From Myxococcota bacterium (lineage in GTDB: Bacteria > Myxococcota_A > Polyangia > Polyangiales > Houyiibacteriaceae), in assembly GCA_028284955.1 (NCBI GenBank), contig JANQQS010000005.1:1946-65945 (forward strand): DNA of 64,000 bases, read 5' to 3'. Positions within the stretch are counted from its first letter, which is position 1, and each line of letters begins with the position of its first letter. The notes under the pieces are model-generated. The model worked only from the letters and a program-made list of their open reading frames with translations, had not been told where the DNA came from and searched no databases. This document shows, one piece after another, positions 3,794 through 37,340 of this stretch. The position numbers and the translations under genes are program-made.

Positions 3794-5752
3794 ATGAACT
3801 TCGGGTCTAGGCCGTTGTGGGGATTTGTCGGATGCGTGATGCTGGTCGCATTCTCCATATACGCTCGCTCGGAGCCCGAAGCGCCGTCTGAATCCAGCGC
3901 CCAGCCTTCGCCCGCGTCGGTTCCGCCCGTTGATGAGAAAGCGGTTGATGAAAAGGCCGTCGACGAGGAAACGGGCGCATGGTTGGTCGACCTGGATGAC
4001 GATGTCGACGCCGCGGAGCTTCGCGACGTGGCGCGACAGGTGCGCGAAGCGGTGGCGCCGTACGACTGGCCTCGTGGCATCGCTGCTCTGGGGACGGTGG
4101 TTTCTCCTGCTGCCCGCATCTATCGCCTTCGTCCACCGGCCAGTGAGGTGAACGATATTCGTCGCGCGCTCGCGCGTAGCGGGCTCGCGGAAGGGGTGGA
4201 ACGAGAGAGGATATGGCGGCTGCCTCGAATCGATGGCGCTGCGCTCTCTTCATTGGCCACGAAGGCTCTATCGACAACGAACACGTGGCAACGACCCAAG
4301 CCGGCACGCAAAAAGCCGTTCGTGCCGAATGATCCCTACTACCGCCACCAATGGCATCTCGACCAGATTCAGATGCCCTTGGCATGGACGCGCTCGCAGG
4401 GCGAAGGCGCGACCGTGGCCGTGGTCGACACCGGGGTTTCCTATCGGGATCATGCGCCGTACAAGCGAGCTCCTGACCTCATCCGAACCAAGTTTGTTCC
4501 CGGCTATGACTTTGTGGATGGCGATGACCATCCCGACGATGCCCACGGCCACGGCACCCATGTCGCGGGAACGATCGCCCAGTCGACGCACAACGGAGTC
4601 GGGGTCGCGGGGGTCGCTCCGAAGGCCGCCATCATGCCCGTGCGCGTGCTCGACGCGCGGGGCGCTGGCTCCTGGGGAAGCGTTGCTGCGGGGATTCGTT
4701 TTGCCGCCGACCATGGCGCGCACGTGATCAATCTCTCTCTCGGTGGCGGCATGGCATCGGCGACCATTCGGCGCGCCATTCAGCGAGCTCGCCGCAAAGG
4801 CGTGGTGGTGATCGCGGCTGCGGGAAACACAGGGCGAGGCCGCGTACAATACCCCGCGGCGCATGCCGAAACGCTCGCTGTGGGAGCGGTGCGGTTCGAT
4901 GAGAAGCTGGCCTTTTATTCGTCGTTTGGTCGACATCTGGATGTCGTCGCCCCGGGCGGAGACCTGCGCGTAGACCAAAATCGCGACGGAATGCCCGACG
5001 GCGTGCTGCAAAATACGCTGGTTCGCGGGCAGCTCTCCCGGCACGACTACATTGCCTACCAAGGCACCTCCATGGCCGCACCTCACGTGGCCGGGATCGC
5101 GGCGCTGCTCGTGTCCCAAGGAATCGATCAGCCGAGCGCGATCGAAGGCATTCTTCGTCGCACCGCGAAGCCCAAGGGAAGCGAGTTTCGTTACGGTCAC
5201 GGATTGGTGCGCGCGGAAGCCGCGCTTTCGGCAGCGGGCGAAGAGCTCGCCGGGGCGCGCGGAGCAGCGGCGCTCGCTCTCTGCGGGCTGATGCTGCTGG
5301 GGCTTCACCGCCGCCGCCGCCTCGATGTTTCGTTCGCGCCGACATTGGCGGTTGGATTTGTGATCGCTGGCGGCCTGGCGGCGCTCCCCTGGCGCTGGTT
5401 GCTGTCCGCACAACCCATCGCTTGGATGACGCGCGCGCTCAGACTCCTCGGCGACACGGCGAGCACGGGAATCGGATTCGGCGATTCAGTATGGGGGCCG
5501 AGCCTATCGTTGCTCATCGGAGCGAGCGCCGCGGTCCCGATCGCGCTGACATTGCTGCTCCTAAGCGTACGACGGCTGCGACCCATCGTGATTGGCATCT
5601 CGTTTGGAACCGCTGCCTGGCTCGGCATCGAAGCCGCGATTCCCACGCTTCACTTCGGCAGCATTCCCGGCTTCGCGGTAGGTCCTTGGCTCGCGGCAAA
5701 CGCAGTGCTTTGCGCCTGGCTAGGATCCCTTGCGGCGACGAAAAACCGGTAG
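3794..5752 (+). CDS. Subtilisin-like (S8) serine peptidase with signal peptide and C-terminal polytopic membrane domain
   Basis: Asp/His/Ser triad motifs VAVVDTGV, HGHGTHVAGTIA and GTSMAAPHVAG. The last ~170 aa contain about 5-6 hydrophobic helices. Confidence 0.9.
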   Translation: MNFGSRPLWGFVGCVMLVAFSIYARSEPEAPSESSAQPSPASVPPVDEKAVDEKAVDEETGAWLVDLDDDVDAAELRDVARQVREAVAPYDWPRGIAALGTVVSPAARIYRLRPPASEVNDIRRALARSGLAEGVERERIWRLPRIDGAALSSLATKALSTTNTWQRPKPARKKPFVPNDPYYRHQWHLDQIQMPLAWTRSQGEGATVAVVDTGVSYRDHAPYKRAPDLIRTKFVPGYDFVDGDDHPDDAHGHGTHVAGTIAQSTHNGVGVAGVAPKAAIMPVRVLDARGAGSWGSVAAGIRFAADHGAHVINLSLGGGMASATIRRAIQRARRKGVVVIAAAGNTGRGRVQYPAAHAETLAVGAVRFDEKLAFYSSFGRHLDVVAPGGDLRVDQNRDGMPDGVLQNTLVRGQLSRHDYIAYQGTSMAAPHVAGIAALLVSQGIDQPSAIEGILRRTAKPKGSEFRYGHGLVRAEAALSAAGEELAGARGAAALALCGLMLLGLHRRRRLDVSFAPTLAVGFVIAGGLAALPWRWLLSAQPIAWMTRALRLLGDTASTGIGFGDSVWGPSLSLLIGASAAVPIALTLLLLSVRRLRPIVIGISFGTAAWLGIEAAIPTLHFGSIPGFAVGPWLAANAVLCAWLGSLAATKNR

Positions 5753-9190: not shown

Positions 9191-9284
9191 GTCTATGTCA
9201 CACAAGTTCCTTCATCAGGGGTGACCGCTCGCTCGCCGTGATTGCGGTTCAGAGGTATCCGTTCACCCAACCCTCCTCTGTTCA

Positions 9285-9345
9285 GGGGGTCTTCCGAGAC
9301 CCCCTCGATTGGTGAACTCGGTCCACCAATCTTCACCCCTACCGT
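9285..9345 (+). repeat. Double-hairpin + TTCACCC-box element (solo copy)
   Basis: HP1 GGGGGTCT-TCCG-AGACCCCC (9285-9304), HP2 ATTGGTG-N9-CACCAAT (9308-9330), box CTTCACCCCTACCGT (9331-9345). A second TTCACCCAA lies at 9262-9270. Same architecture as at 10912, 12618, 36171-36222(-) and 36343-36394(-). Confidence 0.8.
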
Positions 9346-10814: not shown

Positions 10815-10901
10815 GGAGAAGTGGCCGAGTGGTCGAAGGCGGCGGTCTTGAAAACCGCTGAGCCCGCAAGGGTTCCGGGGGTTCGAATCCCTCCTTCTCC
10901 G
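10815..10901 (+). tRNA. tRNA-Ser (anticodon UGA)
   Basis: GGAGAAG acceptor pairs with CTTCTCC. Anticodon loop CTTGAAA, long variable arm, T-loop GTTCGAATC. No encoded CCA. Confidence 0.9.
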
Positions 10902-10911
10902 CTGGTTTTTT

Positions 10912-11203
10912 GAGGGGGTCTTCCGAGACCCCCTCTCGTCGGGGATACGATCCCCGCCGATTCACCCCTACCGTTTGGCTCGCGTTCGCTCGCGTTTGGT
11001 GCTGCCGCGGGCGTTGGGTGGTGGGGTGTTTGGTGGTTGGTGGCCGTCGGGGATGTGATTCCCGCCGATTCACCCTACCGTTTGGCTCGCGTTCGCTCGC
11101 GTTTGGTGCTGCCGCGGGCGTTGTGTGGTGGGGTGTTTGGTGGTTGGTAGTTGGTGGCCGTCGGGGATGTGATTCCCGCCGATTCACCCCTATCGTTTGG
11201 CTC
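10912..11203 (+). repeat. tRNA-linked repeat block: HP1 hairpin followed by ~2.4 tandem units of 108-114 bp
   Basis: HP1 GAGGGGGTCT-TCCG-AGACCCCCTC (10912-10935). Units start at 10937, 11045 and 11159. Each begins CGTCGGGGAT(ACG/GTG)AT(C/T)CCCGCCGATTCACCC(C)TA(C/T)CGTTTGGCTC and ends in a G/T-rich tract GGTGTTTGGTGGTTGGTGG. Confidence 0.9.
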
Positions 11204-12518: not shown

Positions 12519-12609
<91 letters not shown>

Positions 12610-12617
12610 TGTTTTTT

Positions 12618-12935
12618 GAGGGGGTCTTCCGAGACCCCCTCTCGGCGGGGATACGATCCCCGCCGATTCACCCCTACCGTTTTGCTCGCGTTCGCTCGCG
12701 TTTGGTGCTGGCGCGGGCGTTGTGTGGTTTGGTGTTTGGTGTTTGGTGGCCGTCGGGGATGTGTTCCCGCCGATTCACCCCTACCGTTTTGCTCGCGTTC
12801 GCTCGCGTTTGGTGCTGCCGCGGGCGTCGTGTGGTTTGGTGTTTGGTGTTTGGTGGCCGTCGGGGATGTGTTCCCACCGATTCACCCCTACCGTTTTGCT
12901 CGCGTTCGCTCGCGTTTTGGTGCTGGCGCGGGTTT
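12618..12935 (+). repeat. tRNA-linked repeat block: HP1 hairpin followed by ~2.8 tandem units of ~108 bp
   Basis: HP1 at 12618-12641 is identical to 10912-10935. Units start at 12643, 12751 and 12858, with the same unit architecture as the block behind tRNA-Ser(UGA). Confidence 0.9.
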
Positions 12936-33020: not shown

Positions 33021-34085
33021 ATGCTAGGGCGTTCATCCTCTGATGGTGTGTTTGTGCAGAGGCCGGCTGTTTTCAACCTTTGTATTGTTTTTTTGTGTGT
33101 GTCCTGCACTCCCGATACGGGTGCGCGCGTTGAACCGCAAAACGAACTTAAACAAACCTCGATAAGCTGGCGTATCCCTCCCCCCCGCGAACAATGGGAG
33201 GCCTTGTTTACGGGTTACGATCTGAAGGCGCTTCGCGGTTCCTTGGCTCTAACCGAAATACCAGAGTTGCAGAAGAGCTACCTCCACGTCTCTCAAGAAC
33301 ACCAGCTGGGTGTTTCAACACGCAGTATCGGGAAATGGGAGAAAACGCGCGACCAACCCATCTCCGGCGCTTATGGGTGCAATCTTAGCGGACACAAACA
33401 AGTCTATAACCGCCTCGTGCAAGCTCAGATTTCGAACAAGGCTACCGAAATTCTGCTCGACATCCCCTTTCGTGCCTCCTCAGGCCGCCGGCGAAGAACG
33501 TTTTCCCCAGAGGATATCAACGACCTTCGACTCTTTTTTGAGAGCCAGGATTGCGAGGGGCAGCGACCTGATCACCGCATTCGCCATCGTCTGAGTGGCC
33601 CCGCGACCGCAATTAATCTCGGAAAGCTTCTCGCTTCGGTGGACTATGACACGGCCCAAGCCGAGCGATTCACCTACGTCGATGTGCCGAAACGAGTAGT
33701 CGGGAAGTGGTTTGAGCGTTCTCCCACGTTTCGCGCCAGCTACATTCAAGCCATCGCGCGCGCACATTTGATTCGTCGGACACTTCTCGAATCCATCGCA
33801 GAAAGCGCACCAGAAGACCGCGACGAGGCAAAAGAAACTGCTCGAACCACGATGTCGATCATCATGTGGGATGTCGCGTGTACCTCGGATAGCTACCGGG
33901 AGAATCCCGAGCGAATCCTCCTAGATGTTCAGCAGGCGTATCCGAAAATGCTTCGTTACGCTGCGAAGTGGCACATAGCGGATCGCGAGTCAAAAGCCGA
34001 CGATCCTTCCCACTATCTCAATCGTTTTCGTGGCTGGCAATGGGATGATGATGAGTGGGACTATACGAAATGGGCTTCGAAGTAG
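33021..34085 (+). CDS. Hypothetical protein (orphan; possible lipoprotein) containing an XRE-HTH-like segment
   Basis: N-terminus ...AVFNLCIVFLCVSCT. The internal LGVSTRSIGKWEKTRDQP resembles an XRE helix-turn-helix. Otherwise no recognisable domain. Confidence 0.5.
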   Translation: MLGRSSSDGVFVQRPAVFNLCIVFLCVSCTPDTGARVEPQNELKQTSISWRIPPPREQWEALFTGYDLKALRGSLALTEIPELQKSYLHVSQEHQLGVSTRSIGKWEKTRDQPISGAYGCNLSGHKQVYNRLVQAQISNKATEILLDIPFRASSGRRRRTFSPEDINDLRLFFESQDCEGQRPDHRIRHRLSGPATAINLGKLLASVDYDTAQAERFTYVDVPKRVVGKWFERSPTFRASYIQAIARAHLIRRTLLESIAESAPEDRDEAKETARTTMSIIMWDVACTSDSYRENPERILLDVQQAYPKMLRYAAKWHIADRESKADDPSHYLNRFRGWQWDDDEWDYTKWASK

Positions 34086-34123
34086 CGTTTATTTCCTCGT
34101 TCTGATCCATGAACCTTGCCGAT

Positions 34124-34501
34124 TTAGATCTCGATTGATCGCAATCGCGGGTCAAGGCGGGCGAGGTCGTTTGGGTCGCTGGTGATGACGCTGGCGCCGA
34201 GCGAGCGTGCGAGGAGGGCGACGTGGGCGTCGACGACATCCGTCGTTTTTGATGCCGCGAGAAGCGATCCGACGGAGTAAGCGAGCCGTTCGGTCAGAGG
34301 ATGCACGCGTGCCGCGCGTGTTTTGACGAGCCGCGCGATCGGGTGTTGTTTGCTTGTTCCTCGCCACACTTGCGCGAGCACTCCTGCCGGGACGTGTGCC
34401 GCAGAGCGACCGTGAACCAATGCCTCCAACAATGCGAGCATTCTGCGGTTGCGTTTTTCGAGAACAATAAGCGCTCCTGCATCAAGCGCCTCAGGCCTCA
34501 T
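34124..34501 (-). CDS. vapC: PIN-domain toxin (VapC family)
   Basis: Acidic PIN residues in LDAGALIVLE, DVVDAHVALLA and ITSDPNDL. 4-bp ATGA overlap with the upstream antitoxin gene. Confidence 0.8.
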   Translation of the reverse strand: MRPEALDAGALIVLEKRNRRMLALLEALVHGRSAAHVPAGVLAQVWRGTSKQHPIARLVKTRAARVHPLTERLAYSVGSLLAASKTTDVVDAHVALLARSLGASVITSDPNDLARLDPRLRSIEI

Positions 34502-34743
34502 GCGGCGTCGATATCCGGGTCGCTTTCGAGCATTGAGTGCGCCCAGGCCCGGTCTGCATCCGTTCGACCACCTGCCTCGTCAATCAAATCGTCGATGATC
34601 TGTTTCGCATCCGCCCAATCGGGCTCCCGGACGGCGAGTTGAGCGAAGTATGCCGACACCGACTCCGCGTGCCCCGCGTGGGTCGCTTTCAAGGCCTTCT
34701 CTGCAATTTCCTCGGGCACGCTGATGGTGATTCGCTTCAGCAT
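34498..34743 (-). CDS. vapB: Ribbon-helix-helix antitoxin (VapB/CopG-like)
   Basis: MLKRITISVPEEIAEKALKA is an RHH N-terminus; acidic C-terminal tail. Translationally coupled to vapC. Confidence 0.7.
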   Translation of the reverse strand: MLKRITISVPEEIAEKALKATHAGHAESVSAYFAQLAVREPDWADAKQIIDDLIDEAGGRTDADRAWAHSMLESDPDIDAA

Positions 34744-34810
34744 CTCTACTTCATATTACGCGCATAAAAAATGTGCGAGCGGCTCGGCAAATCAGATTTG
34801 TCCTTGGTGG

Positions 34811-34886
34811 GCGAGGCGTCTCGCCGAAGTTTGCGTTGGTGCTTGAGCGAGTACTCGGAACGACAGCTGAGACGTGGGTACGGATG
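34811..34886 (+). pseudogene. Isolated higA-like (XRE antitoxin) 3' fragment
   Basis: 76 bp, about 89% identical (8 mismatches by my count) to 35848-35923. It encodes RGVSPKFALVLERVLGTTAETWVRM with no upstream HTH helices. Confidence 0.55.
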
Positions 34887-34976
34887 CTCCGATTGCTTTC
34901 CGCTGTTTTCGCTCATGCAATCGCTCGTTTTGGCGCGTTGTTTTATCCCTTGTCCATCTTCTGCCAGATAACCCGG

Positions 34977-35717
34977 ATGGTGGTGCGCGGGTTGATTTGT
35001 AACCTCATCTTTCCCTCTGTTGCGACGCTGGCAGCGGGCCAAGCAGAGAATCAGCCGACGTCTGGCTCGCAGGGAAACAAATCGCTCGATCTATCTACGT
35101 ACCGAACGTACTCTTGCGACCAAGTTTTCGAAAATGGGCTAGACGCGGCGGTAAAAGAGCTAAAGGTCGCATTGCGACCGGAGCCGGGCAGCCCGGGCTA
35201 CGCGGATATAAACACAAGCAAGTTTCTCCAGCGCTGGCTGGACGAGATCCCGCAACCTCAAGGCAAAGTGGAAGCCCGACAAGCGCAGTCGGAGCTCGAG
35301 CAATGGAGCGGATGCACAGTGTTGGCGGTTTCGGAGGCAATGCAAGAATACCCATGGAAACCGAGTAGTTTGTCTGTACCTGTTTGGTTTGAAACCTATG
35401 ACGCTTCAGGACTGCACGATGATGATCCTGGAAGTTTTCTTATTTTTGCTGCGTTGAAGGGTTACGGACCCGGCATCCCGAGGAGTCGCAACGACGTCAA
35501 GTGGCCGATCGAAGGGCGGACTAGCGTGATGAGCGGAGAGAATCGCGTTCCACTACCTCCCAAGGGGAACCCTGCCGGAAACGCGTATCGACCGGGTCCA
35601 ACCGAGCACTTAGGTAGAGCGTCGATGTATTTCGGCAAGAGTTGGGCGCTCCCTTGTGAACCACGGTTGGGGGTTCGCATCATATTGTGGGCGGAGAGAG
35701 ATCGCAGCGGCTTCTGA
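34977..35717 (+). CDS. Hypothetical secreted protein (orphan)
   Basis: MVVRGLICNLIFPSVATLAAGQAE signal-like N-terminus. No recognisable domain. Bracketed by the two higA-like fragments. Confidence 0.45.
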   Translation: MVVRGLICNLIFPSVATLAAGQAENQPTSGSQGNKSLDLSTYRTYSCDQVFENGLDAAVKELKVALRPEPGSPGYADINTSKFLQRWLDEIPQPQGKVEARQAQSELEQWSGCTVLAVSEAMQEYPWKPSSLSVPVWFETYDASGLHDDDPGSFLIFAALKGYGPGIPRSRNDVKWPIEGRTSVMSGENRVPLPPKGNPAGNAYRPGPTEHLGRASMYFGKSWALPCEPRLGVRIILWAERDRSGF

Positions 35718-36022
35718 CACGGAGTGAGGTCTCCGCTGCGTTCGGTTGGAACGAGGAGCGTCACCATCGAGTTGCCGTGGTGCACTACGTTTTGGCTAGC
35801 CTGTGCAAGCGATCGCCAAGAAAGATCAACGAGATCGTCAACGGTACGCGAGGCGTCTCGCTGGAGTTTGCGTTGGTGCTTGAGCGAATGCTTGGAACGA
35901 CGGCAGAGATGTGGGTACGGATGAAGGTGGAGTACGACCCGTGGGCTGCGCGACAGAAAGCGGCGCAGCGCGCCGGGATTTCTCTCAAACGCGCAAGCCG
36001 CAACGCCGCGGAGGTTGGGTAA
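35687..36022 (+). CDS. HigA/XRE-like antitoxin-related ORF with atypical (possibly decayed) N-terminus
   Basis: LASLCKRSPRKINEIVNGTRGVSLEFALVLERMLGTTAEMWVRMKVEYDPWAA matches the HigA C-terminal two-thirds. The expected HPGE...L N-terminal helix is not recognisable, and no higB-like toxin gene is adjacent. Confidence 0.4.
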   Translation: MGGERSQRLLTRSEVSAAFGWNEERHHRVAVVHYVLASLCKRSPRKINEIVNGTRGVSLEFALVLERMLGTTAEMWVRMKVEYDPWAARQKAAQRAGISLKRASRNAAEVG

Positions 36023-36068
36023 ATTTCTTTCCCCGTCCCCGATCTTTCAGTGACAACTACAGTTAGAC

Positions 36069-36396
36069 TAGGAGCAGTGCGTGCTTGCGTTGATCGAGAA
36101 TCTCGCAGAATGAAGACATCCCGCGAACTCTCCGGCAACCATGTCACGTGCCTCCTGGCAGGGGAGTTTGGGTGAATCGACGGGATCGTATCCCGGCGAG
36201 AGGGTCTGGGTGCCAGACCCTCAGGTAGACTGACCACTGCTCTAGAGCAAAGCCTGCTTGTGTTGATCGAACTCTCTCAGCAGGAAGATATTCCGCGAAC
36301 TCCCCGGCAACCAGGTTACGTGCCTCCTGGCGGGGGAGTTTGGGTGAATCGACGGGATCGTACCCCGACGAGAGGGTCTGGGTGCCAGACCCTCAG
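36069..36396 (-). repeat. Tandem direct repeat, two units of ~172-173 bp, each ending (minus orientation: beginning) with a double-hairpin + TTCACCC element
   Basis: GTTGATCGA at 36089 and 36262; CCAGACCCTCAG at 36213 and 36385. Embedded minus-strand elements: GAGGGTCTGG-loop-CCAGACCCTC, CGGGAT-ACG-ATCCCG, GATTCACCCAAAC. Confidence 0.85.
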
Positions 36397-37340
36397 ATAA
36401 AACGGCGCGGACGCCGCCGTACTCTGGCGACCACGGTGCCGAGTAGTGCGAGCCAGGCGAGTAGGGGGGCTTCGGAGCGGCGTCCCGGGGAGACGGAGCA
36501 GTCACTGCTGACGCTTCCCGAGGCCTCTGCGGAGCAGCTTCCTCCGCCACACGCGGCGCTGCTGCTGGCATCGACCTCGACGTTGAGGCGCGCGTTGAGC
36601 GCACGAATACAGTCTTCAAGATTGTTGTCGTGGTCAATGTATTGGCTGTCGCAAAACAAAGCGCCTTCCGGAGTTTGGCATTCCGCCATGCATCCGCCGA
36701 CACACTCCGCAGTGAGCCCGGCCTGGCAATCGATCTGGCAGTCGAAGTTTGCGTCGGCGCGACACCGGCCCTCCACCGTCGCTTCGCAGCGGGCTTCACA
36801 GCTCGCTTCGGGCGGTTCTACGTCGCAGCGCGCGCTGCACTCTCCCGAACACGTCGCATTGCACGATGCCTGACATTCCCCCATGCATGACGCTTGGTCA
36901 GAGTTCGCTTCGCAGCGCGCCTCGCAGCTCGCTCCGCAATCCACCTCGCAGCCCGCGGAGCAGCTCGCAGAGCAATCGAACCGTCCCGGATCGACTTCGC
37001 ATTGGGCCATGCACTCCGCCACATCAATGCGCGCCTCGCATTCTGCAGATACGCTCGCCTGACAGCCTCCCTGACAATCTGCAAAGGCCGTCACCGAGCA
37101 GTTAATCGGTGTGCACTGGGCCTCGCATCCACCTTCAACCGACACCTGGCACATGGCGCTTGCCTGAACGTTGATGTTTCCGCACGCGGCAAGCCCCGTT
37201 TCTTGCGCTGCGGCCACATCGGGCAACAAAGCCGCTCCCGTGCCCAAGACGAGCATCGAACAAACCCACGCCTTTTTGGACATCCATCGCGAAGAAAAAG
37301 CAGATTTTGAGAAGGTGGATAAAGCTCGGCTCGCTTGCAT
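36393..37340 (-). CDS. Cysteine-rich (CxxxC-periodic) secreted protein with MYXO-CTERM-like sorting tail
   Basis: About 50 Cys in runs such as CSAGCEVDCGASCEARCEANSDQASCMGECQASCNATCSGECSARC. C-terminus DCSVSPG..APLLAWLALLGTVVARVRRRPRR. ATG at 37340 has AGGAG 6 nt upstream; an internal ATG at 37283 is possible. Confidence 0.7.
   Translation of the reverse strand: MQASRALSTFSKSAFSSRWMSKKAWVCSMLVLGTGAALLPDVAAAQETGLAACGNINVQASAMCQVSVEGGCEAQCTPINCSVTAFADCQGGCQASVSAECEARIDVAECMAQCEVDPGRFDCSASCSAGCEVDCGASCEARCEANSDQASCMGECQASCNATCSGECSARCDVEPPEASCEARCEATVEGRCRADANFDCQIDCQAGLTAECVGGCMAECQTPEGALFCDSQYIDHDNNLEDCIRALNARLNVEVDASSSAACGGGSCSAEASGSVSSDCSVSPGRRSEAPLLAWLALLGTVVARVRRRPRRFI

Follow-up and report, generated by a model that had tools for sequence, protein, structure and literature searches.

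A dispersed family of insertion-derived double-hairpin repeats at gene ends in a Myxococcota genome and in distant carriers

The stretch of Myxococcota DNA considered here, referred to throughout as the window, is 64 kb long and contains five full copies of a short repeat composed of two hairpins followed by a box. A sequence-only reading had placed five such copies at these loci, and both direct reading and a regular-expression search bore this out. The order of the modules is the same in all five: a first hairpin (HP1), a second hairpin (HP2) that abuts it, and the box (GA)TTCACCC. A covariance model, R1, built from 16 metagenome copies with none from the window, recovered all five when run with its filters off (E = 7e-12 to 3e-6), and gave no further strong match in the 64 kb. 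The string GATTCACCC occurs eight times in the window as against 0.49 expected, and 0 of 100 shuffles reached eight. The observation is confirmed as real and far from chance.

Copy 1 (9283..9342, + strand; core 9284-9339) was found by reading, by regular expression and by the covariance model (E = 3e-6). It lies between the convergent genes for a CDP-alcohol transferase and a nucleoside transporter, and lies 93 nt past the stop codon of the transferase gene. Its HP1 (9284-9305, + strand) has the arms AGGGGGTCT/AGACCCCCT, its HP2 (9307-9331, + strand) the arms GATTGGTG/CACCAATC, and its box, TTCACCCC, occupies 9332-9339 on the same strand. A repeat search of the window returned exactly the HP1 and HP2 arms that had been described; what had been called a TCG-type spacer is instead the conserved base, or foot, of the HP2 stem, TCG...CGA. 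A lone TTCACCC box, located by regular expression, stands upstream of this copy at 9262..9268 (+ strand), and a weak covariance-model match (9217-9272, E = 5.7) extends over it. This lone box is possibly the remnant of a decayed tandem copy.

Copies 2 and 3 lie directly 3′ of two tRNA-Ser genes, as had been noted, and the identity of both genes was borne out by ARAGORN and Rfam. The tRNA-Ser(TGA) gene (10815..10902, + strand) is followed by a run of six T, then by HP1 (10912-10935), HP2 (10936-10960) and the box of copy 2 (10911..10971, + strand; core 10912-10967; covariance-model E = 7e-11). The tRNA-Ser(GCT) gene (12519..12609, + strand) is followed by copy 3 (12617..12677, + strand; core 12618-12673; covariance-model E = 7e-12), the first 110 nt of which are 95.5% identical to copy 2. 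Both tRNA genes are taken here as insertion targets, and neither encodes CCA. Behind them lie tandem arrays of a 107-bp unit, with 2.4 units at 10937..11203 (+ strand) and 2.6 units at 12642..12935 (+ strand); copy 3 and its array together take up the spacer between the tRNA-Ser and tRNA-Arg genes. Each 107-bp unit has an HP2-like hairpin at its head and also contains the box, a third, GC-rich stem and a spacer rich in G and T. Four partial copies, consisting of HP2 and box, are thereby added to the five full ones, at 11046-11079, 11160-11193, 12752-12784 and 12850-12891 (all + strand; covariance model R1, E = 0.07-0.35). They had been overlooked earlier because they lie inside the arrays.

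The 107-bp units are 81-94% identical over their full length, the parts between the hairpins included, and a CRISPR array was rejected since these parts are conserved rather than being unique spacers. The G/T-rich spacers, which include (GTTTGGT)x3, lie at 11009-11045, 12727-12748 and 12834-12855 and might form G-quadruplex-like structures. In the predicted fold of the window arrays the G/T-rich spacer can pair with the C-rich box, and the single-stranded tail that follows HP2 can pair with a downstream GGGGUG, the latter not being general in the family. The only other assembly that holds the window's aldolase gene, a Logan contig of 1253 nt (L132), ends on both sides where the 107-bp arrays start, which indicates that the arrays break short-read assemblies.

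The remaining two copies, near 36 kb, belong to one tandem duplication of 172 bp whose units (36225-36396 and 36053-36224) are 83% identical. Copy 4 (36338..36395, − strand; core 36394-36342; covariance-model E = 6e-7) has the HP1 arms GAGGGTCTGG/CCAGACCCTC, and copy 5 (36166..36223, − strand; core 36222-36170; covariance-model E = 2e-7) lies in the second unit. Each unit also has a third hairpin, AACTCCCC...GGGGAGTT. A small ORF following the box in these copies was considered and rejected, as a frame-shifting indel separates the two units. The TGA of a Cys-rich ORF (36393..37340, − strand) overlaps the first two bases of HP1 in copy 4, just as had been read. The 315-aa protein it encodes has a signal-peptide-like N-terminus, many C-x3-C/CEARC-type repeats with a 12-/24-nt periodicity in the DNA, a hydrophobic C-terminus and an RRRPRR tail, and matches no Pfam family. 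A toxin-antitoxin-like cluster of small genes (34124-36022) adjoins the 36-kb copies. On the − strand it includes two overlapping ORFs of 125 and 81 aa, and two ORFs (34773.. and 35687..36022, the second with no Pfam match) have the motif FALVLER(V/M)LGTTAE(T/M)WVRM in common and look like a partly duplicated HTH antitoxin. The GC skew of the window is positive to about 35 kb and negative thereafter, with a cumulative peak at 34-36 kb, which suggests a replication terminus or origin near 34000-36000. The three element loci on the + strand lie to the left of this switch and the two − strand copies just to its right.

Beyond the window, a pattern scan of genome contigs found the same architecture in a Myxococcota MAG (L006), in a Planctomycetota-labelled MAG (L002), where it forms a tandem array, and in a MAG labelled Acidobacteria (L001); the HP2 sequences of the three are entirely different. 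A stricter pattern returned at least 120 metagenome loci and four viral contigs. Many pattern matches lie at contig ends, as is expected of repeats that break assemblies. In 0.69 Mb of loci, R1 gave 136 matches at E<0.01, with the best E-values reaching 1e-20. The carriers are environmental contigs, Myxococcota- and Planctomycetota-labelled MAGs, a Bdellovibrionota-like contig and phage contigs. The AT-rich carrier L114 is Bdellovibrionota-like by its LepA. The record of L001 bears the label 'Acidobacteria', and the nearest named homologues of a protein adjacent to its element are from 'Deltaproteobacteria' MAGs; since the label is doubtful, L001 is not counted as a separate phylum. The aldolase of the window has its nearest named relatives, at about 80% identity, in Myxococcota, Polyangiales and Sandaracinus MAGs. 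Around the orthologous aldolase gene in related Polyangiales genomes (L133-L138), R1 found 0 matches in about 100 kb, as against five in the 64 kb of the window, and the family is therefore patchy even among relatives.

The core of the element is about 55 nt long. HP1 is GC-rich and its base is always (A)GGGG/CCCC(U), and HP2, which abuts it, has the base UCG/CGA and an upper stem that varies freely yet stays paired. After HP2 comes an invariant single-stranded tail of 8-11 nt, UUCACCCC. Among 94 distinct copies, in an alignment fitted to the model, a procedure that favours pairing, 96.5% of cells are paired, and this exceeds by a large margin the 40-60% obtained when the 3′ partner is slid by 1-3 columns. 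Double-sided changes are seen at 12 of the 16 pairs. Eight of the nine HP2 pairs are among those with such changes in the 94 copies, in keeping with the claim that HP2 conserves its fold and not its sequence. Natural variants of the HP2 foot replace TCG/CGA with TTG/CAA or TGT/ACA, and a C.U mismatch is common at the fourth pair of HP2. The predicted fold is very stable, −46 kcal/mol for 108 nt. With Rfam 15 only tRNAs reached threshold in the window and 13 loci, and nothing relevant appeared even at E<=10. Literature searches, both for sequence strings and for related topics, brought up no account of such a family, and BLAST of annotated plasmids and phages with one subfamily consensus gave 0 matches.

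It is clear from comparison with relatives, in which the element is missing at orthologous sites, that it arrived by insertion. The spacer between tRNA-Ser(GCT) and tRNA-Arg(ACG) is 430 nt long in the window versus 53-57 nt in the related genomes L133 and L134. In the window it starts ...CTCCGC|TGTTTTTTGAGGGGG, holds the full copy and the array, and ends at the conserved tRNA-Arg promoter, CTTGAC-N17-TAAGCT, which has been retained on the far side. The tRNA-Ser(TGA) site has nearly the same insert at nearly the same junction. The two tRNA-Ser genes of the window are without an encoded CCA (…CCGCTG(G)TTTTTT; 10902-10910 and 12609-12617), whereas the element-free orthologues of tRNA-Ser(GCT) in L133 and L134 encode it (…CCGCCAG; L133 14888-14895). 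With the loss of CCA at the filled genes, the insertion altered the maturation that these tRNAs require.

Two further sites were found in both states. In L139 and L141 a dehydratase gene and the convergent ABC-3 gene overlap at TTAG and are element-free. In L001 and L140 about 165 nt with the element part the two genes; both C-termini are remodelled, and the dehydratase has a new stop, TAA, inside the base of HP1. The 3′ end of lepA is filled in L114 and L142, where the element is antisense to lepA, and empty in L143. In L114 and L142 the final 45 nt of lepA are present twice, once on each side of the insert. The distal, dead end has synonymous codons as in the element-free orthologue, whereas the proximal, functional end has different codons; it thus seems that the insert came with a gene end of its own, in the manner of att-type integrations. 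Simple transposition does not appear to explain the lepA case, which looks att-type. No target-site duplication was found at the tRNA-Ser or the dehydratase/ABC-3 junctions, and an imperfect 100-nt duplication surrounds the phage copy. Taken with the searches described above, these comparisons identify a large, previously uncatalogued family of insertion-derived repeat DNA.

One copy in L001 (2810-2872), located 3′ of an NtrC-like gene, has been retained at the orthologous site in L139 (395-459). The stem sequences of the two differ, yet full pairing is kept, and the tail and the next hairpin are unchanged. The keeping of fold and box at this orthologous copy could mean that the element is selected for some function in the host and does not simply persist as selfish DNA. 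The two copies in L001 have one HP2 variant in common, which suggests either homogenisation within the genome or repeated insertion at a favoured site.

Tandem duplications that include the flanks are frequent in the family, and extend over 101 nt in L031, 86 nt in L091, and 107 and 172 nt in the window. Other repeats are found next to the core. A second family, of 40-nt palindromes bounded by CTAG, CTAGAACACCGAACGGGTT-GAAA-AACCCGTTCGATGTTCTAG, lies on either side of it in L045 (3390-3640) and also in L049, L062, L080, L096 and L120; in this one subfamily the CTAG-bounded palindromes are separate nested modules and not the ends of the element. Another hairpin repeat, GGCGGGGTGAAG...CTTCACCCCGCC followed by TCCCAGCCTCGGGTGCC, is present on both sides of the core in L139 (300-560) and L001 (2720-2960), and its 3′ arm contains TTCACCCC, as does the box. 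A hairpin module, GGCTCCGGCGGTACTCCGCCGGTGCC, recurs upstream of cores in L075 (250-300, 380-420 and 730-770) and L012 (about 3890-3930), in a subfamily that resembles the Planctomycetota-labelled L002. The BOX, RUP and SPRITE repeats of pneumococci are similarly reported to cluster with other repeat families and to nest beside them (PMC10969869).

For the position of the element relative to genes, gene calls in the metagenome loci were made with a rule on GC1/GC2/GC3 that rejects antisense shadow ORFs; this caller is crude, and the orientation counts therefore carry error. Over about 140 independent loci, the upstream neighbour within 300 nt was co-oriented with the element in 34-35 cases and opposite in 18-19, and the downstream neighbour within 300 nt was convergent in 32 and co-oriented in 15, so that both ends of the element face gene 3′ ends at about 2:1. 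Where both neighbours were called, 11 of 19 pairs are convergent. Of the 35 upstream genes that are co-oriented, twelve have their stop codon no more than 5 nt from HP1, and in 39 of 85 copies the HP1 foot shares bases with a TAG, TGA or TAA. With all neighbours counted, 49 are co-oriented and 50 anti-oriented, which leaves no net orientation, and the element in the phage contig, as in L114 and L142, runs antisense to the preceding gene. Set against local GC skew as a proxy for the replication strand, orientation is 49:42, and a replication-strand bias was rejected.

These counts bear on what the sequence-only reading had proposed of the element's orientation. That every copy lies 3′ of a gene in the element's own orientation is true of the window, where all informative copies are co-oriented, and not of the family, since the tabulation over about 140 loci revealed no net bias relative to genes. 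That G.T pairs occur only in this orientation is likewise true of the window variants and fails for the family, in which G.U pairs (11) and A.C mismatches (12) are about equal. With no net orientation and with G.U equal to A.C, a function as RNA in 3′ trailers finds no support beyond the window.

Nor is there an obvious source of mobility nearby. No transposase, RAYT or integrase is found among the strong Pfam matches of the window, and ORFs with a Y1/HUH transposase motif number 0 in 0.69-0.75 Mb of loci. RAYT/TnpA(REP) genes, which had been suggested as something to look for, were thus found neither in the window (Pfam) nor in 0.69 Mb of loci (motif scan). All-versus-all clustering of ORFs at the element-bearing loci gave no recurrent neighbour family; the clusters are only of kinases, NtrC-type regulators and histidine kinases. 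By window Pfam matches and locus ORF clustering, no integrase lies near any bacterial copy.

Membership in several known classes was considered. Terminal inverted repeats were sought round four window loci and only internal hairpins were found; a MITE was rejected on this ground and for the lack of a short target duplication, lepA having a 45-nt gene-end duplication instead. The earlier description as BIME/REP-like holds insofar as the element is a dispersed modular hairpin repeat. Short extragenic palindromes are indeed present in many copies, five full and four partial in 64 kb, but membership in REP/BIME proper is not supported. There are no inverted doublets or alternating orientation, all neighbouring copies being direct or tandem; no RAYT was found in the window or in 0.69 Mb of loci; and the family is not lineage-restricted, as its core is present in Myxococcota and Planctomycetota-labelled MAGs, a Bdellovibrionota-like contig and viral contigs. 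An integron attC site was rejected because aligned copies show AGGGG...CCCCU, UCG...CGA and UUCACCCC and not RYYYAAC...GTTRRRY. It had also been stated that no U-tract follows either hairpin and that these are not canonical intrinsic terminators. Both statements are correct; CUCUCG rather than a U-tract comes after the hairpin, and with orientation unbiased an intrinsic terminator was rejected. HDV-like, hammerhead, twister and pistol ribozymes and tRNA-like folds were set aside on what we take to be the absence of their required cores or loops. The box is complementary to GGGGUGAAGUCG of 16S rRNA, a match that was set aside because this stretch of the rRNA is paired in h44.

The element is probably a small, non-coding, insertion-derived mosaic hairpin repeat, similar to BIME, BOX, RUP and SPRITE in kind, that inserts at gene ends and is amplified locally. 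It settles mainly at gene 3′ ends, among them those directly after tRNA-Ser genes and at the overlaps of convergent genes, and at some sites its 5′ edge supplies a new stop codon. TTAG or CTAG at stop codons is suspected as a target motif. Local expansion by tandem duplication after insertion has given rise to the 107-bp and 172-bp arrays. Its spread may depend on a trans-acting factor that reads folded single-stranded nucleic acid, with the geometry of the hairpins, the conserved stem bases and the tail as likely recognition marks; the analogy is with the RAYT/IS200-type HUH enzymes that read REP hairpins and the integron integrases that read attC. A transcript entering a copy would gain two very stable 3′ hairpins, which could be expected to block exonucleases or to hinder read-through, presumably as a side effect and not as the raison d'être of the element.

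A more specific version of this explanation is that of an ssDNA element of the REP/REPIN or PATE type moved by a RAYT or an IS200/IS605-type Y1 HUH transposase, for which the hairpins would be the recognition signal and the conserved tail the site of cleavage. The extragenic hairpins, with their conserved stem foot and unpaired flank, recall the GTAG plus palindrome of REPs; terminal inverted repeats and target duplications are lacking; with respect to the GC-skew switch, it is the same strand of the element that is on the G-rich side in each of the five copies of the window; and copies within a genome are more alike than orthologous copies. The version is nevertheless rather unlikely, given that the Y1 motif was found in 0 of the searched sequences, that copies are direct or tandem and never inverted doublets, and that the 49:42 count shows no bias with local GC skew. 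In addition, the core is common to distant lineages and phage contigs, whereas REPIN-RAYT pairs are described as vertically inherited. The absence of net orientation weighs against a cis-acting RNA of 3′ untranslated regions, which might serve as a non-canonical terminator, as an exonuclease block or as the dock of a factor that reads UUCACCCC, and would owe its many copies to use by many genes. Strong covariation of HP1 and of HP2, box and fold conserved at the orthologous copy with diverged stems, the very low folding energy given above, a stop codon within the base of HP1 at about 12 loci, including that of the Cys-rich gene in the window, and the 2:1 preference for gene 3′ ends are all as such an RNA would have them, as is the co-orientation of all informative window copies with the upstream gene or tRNA. 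This reading is unlikely, for the phage and Bdellovibrionota-like copies are antisense to the preceding gene, G.U and A.C mismatches are equally frequent, orthologous sites, like some 100 kb from related genomes, are without the element, and there is no U-tract.

Tyrosine recombinases, which would make of these repeats recombination-site relics or miniature integrative elements at gene 3′ ends such as those of tRNA-Ser, and of the arrays the outcome of repeated integration beside an existing site, would account for several of the junctions. Both tRNA-Ser 3′ ends are occupied at nearly the same junction with loss of the encoded CCA, the insert in L114 and L142 seems to have introduced a 45-nt lepA 3′ end in place of the ancestral one, which it displaced, and the phage copy has the 100-nt duplication around it. 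A conserved block of 250 nt located immediately 3′ of a tyrosine integrase has the core at its end in five archaeal-virus-like contigs, which cease to be similar directly beyond the box; these contigs were selected by pattern, their model scores are weak (E = 5e-5 to 1e-3), and the association may be a coincidence. No integrase was found near the bacterial copies by Pfam in the window or by ORF clustering at the loci, the window arrays are not followed by a displaced 3′ fragment of a tRNA gene, and freely varying stems are unfit for sequence-specific core sites, which makes this origin quite improbable. As for unrelated GC-rich, terminator-like look-alikes, GC-rich genomes do have many hairpins near gene ends. 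The same module order in every copy, the invariance of the 8-11-nt tail, the model E-values and the excess of boxes in the window refute this idea, the probability of which is close to nil.

The presence of the same 55-nt folded core in distant hosts and phage contigs points to a conserved partner, an enzyme or other factor. As a speculative and rather doubtful extension, the core could be the recognition module of an undescribed structure-guided insertion system distinct from RAYT/REP, IS200/IS605 and attC, or alternatively represent a new class of conserved structured RNA. Were the former true, distant lineages and phages would have in common an insertion system that targets, replaces or extends gene 3′ ends, supplies stop codons and sometimes brings its own copy of a gene end. 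Small structured repeats shape bacterial genomes in that they break assemblies, remodel gene ends and alter transcripts. Those repeat families that are well studied belong to a small number of model groups and are lineage-bound. The present one abounds in bacteria of soil and sediment that have received little study, including Myxococcota, and is absent from Rfam. The covariance model and three pairs of filled and empty sites open to experiment the questions of what mobilises the element, what its tail does and how it affects the 3′ ends of tRNAs and mRNAs.

With respect to known systems, intrinsic terminators have in common with the element a stable GC-rich hairpin just past stop codons and tRNA genes. 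The element differs in having no U-tract, the T-run in the window preceding HP1, and in its second hairpin and C-rich tail; its orientation, in contrast to that of a terminator, is not tied to the upstream gene. A further likeness is to the REP/BIME elements of Enterobacteria and to REPIN-RAYT systems, which are also short, extragenic, GC-rich palindromes present in many copies and concentrated behind genes. Like the element, REP/BIME sequences form mosaics with linker modules that are open to tandem amplification, conserve both the foot of the stem and an unpaired flank, and lack terminal inverted repeats and target duplications. The element has two different hairpins in a fixed order and an invariant 3′ tail, whereas REPs are single and alternating or inverted. 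Its core is spread over Myxococcota, a Planctomycetota-labelled MAG, a Bdellovibrionota-like contig and phage contigs; REPINs are lineage-bound.

The BOX, RUP and SPRITE repeats of pneumococci resemble the element in being modular with variable internal units, in their stable predicted structures and in nesting (PMC10969869). SPRITE is terminator-like with a U-tract, which the element lacks, and BOX and RUP, unlike the element, end in inverted repeats and do not extend beyond a single genus. The likeness is one of build, and no relation in sequence is expected. Integron attC sites also conserve a fold while the sequence varies, with a few fixed bases at the stem foot, and stand directly behind ORFs, often over the stop codon, in tandem arrays. 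They are read as a folded single strand, a point on which the element may be likened to them by analogy. An attC site is one long bulged hairpin, while the element consists of two short hairpins without the RYYYAAC/GTTRRRY core; and attC sites lie in cassette arrays beside an integrase, whereas the element is dispersed among housekeeping genes.
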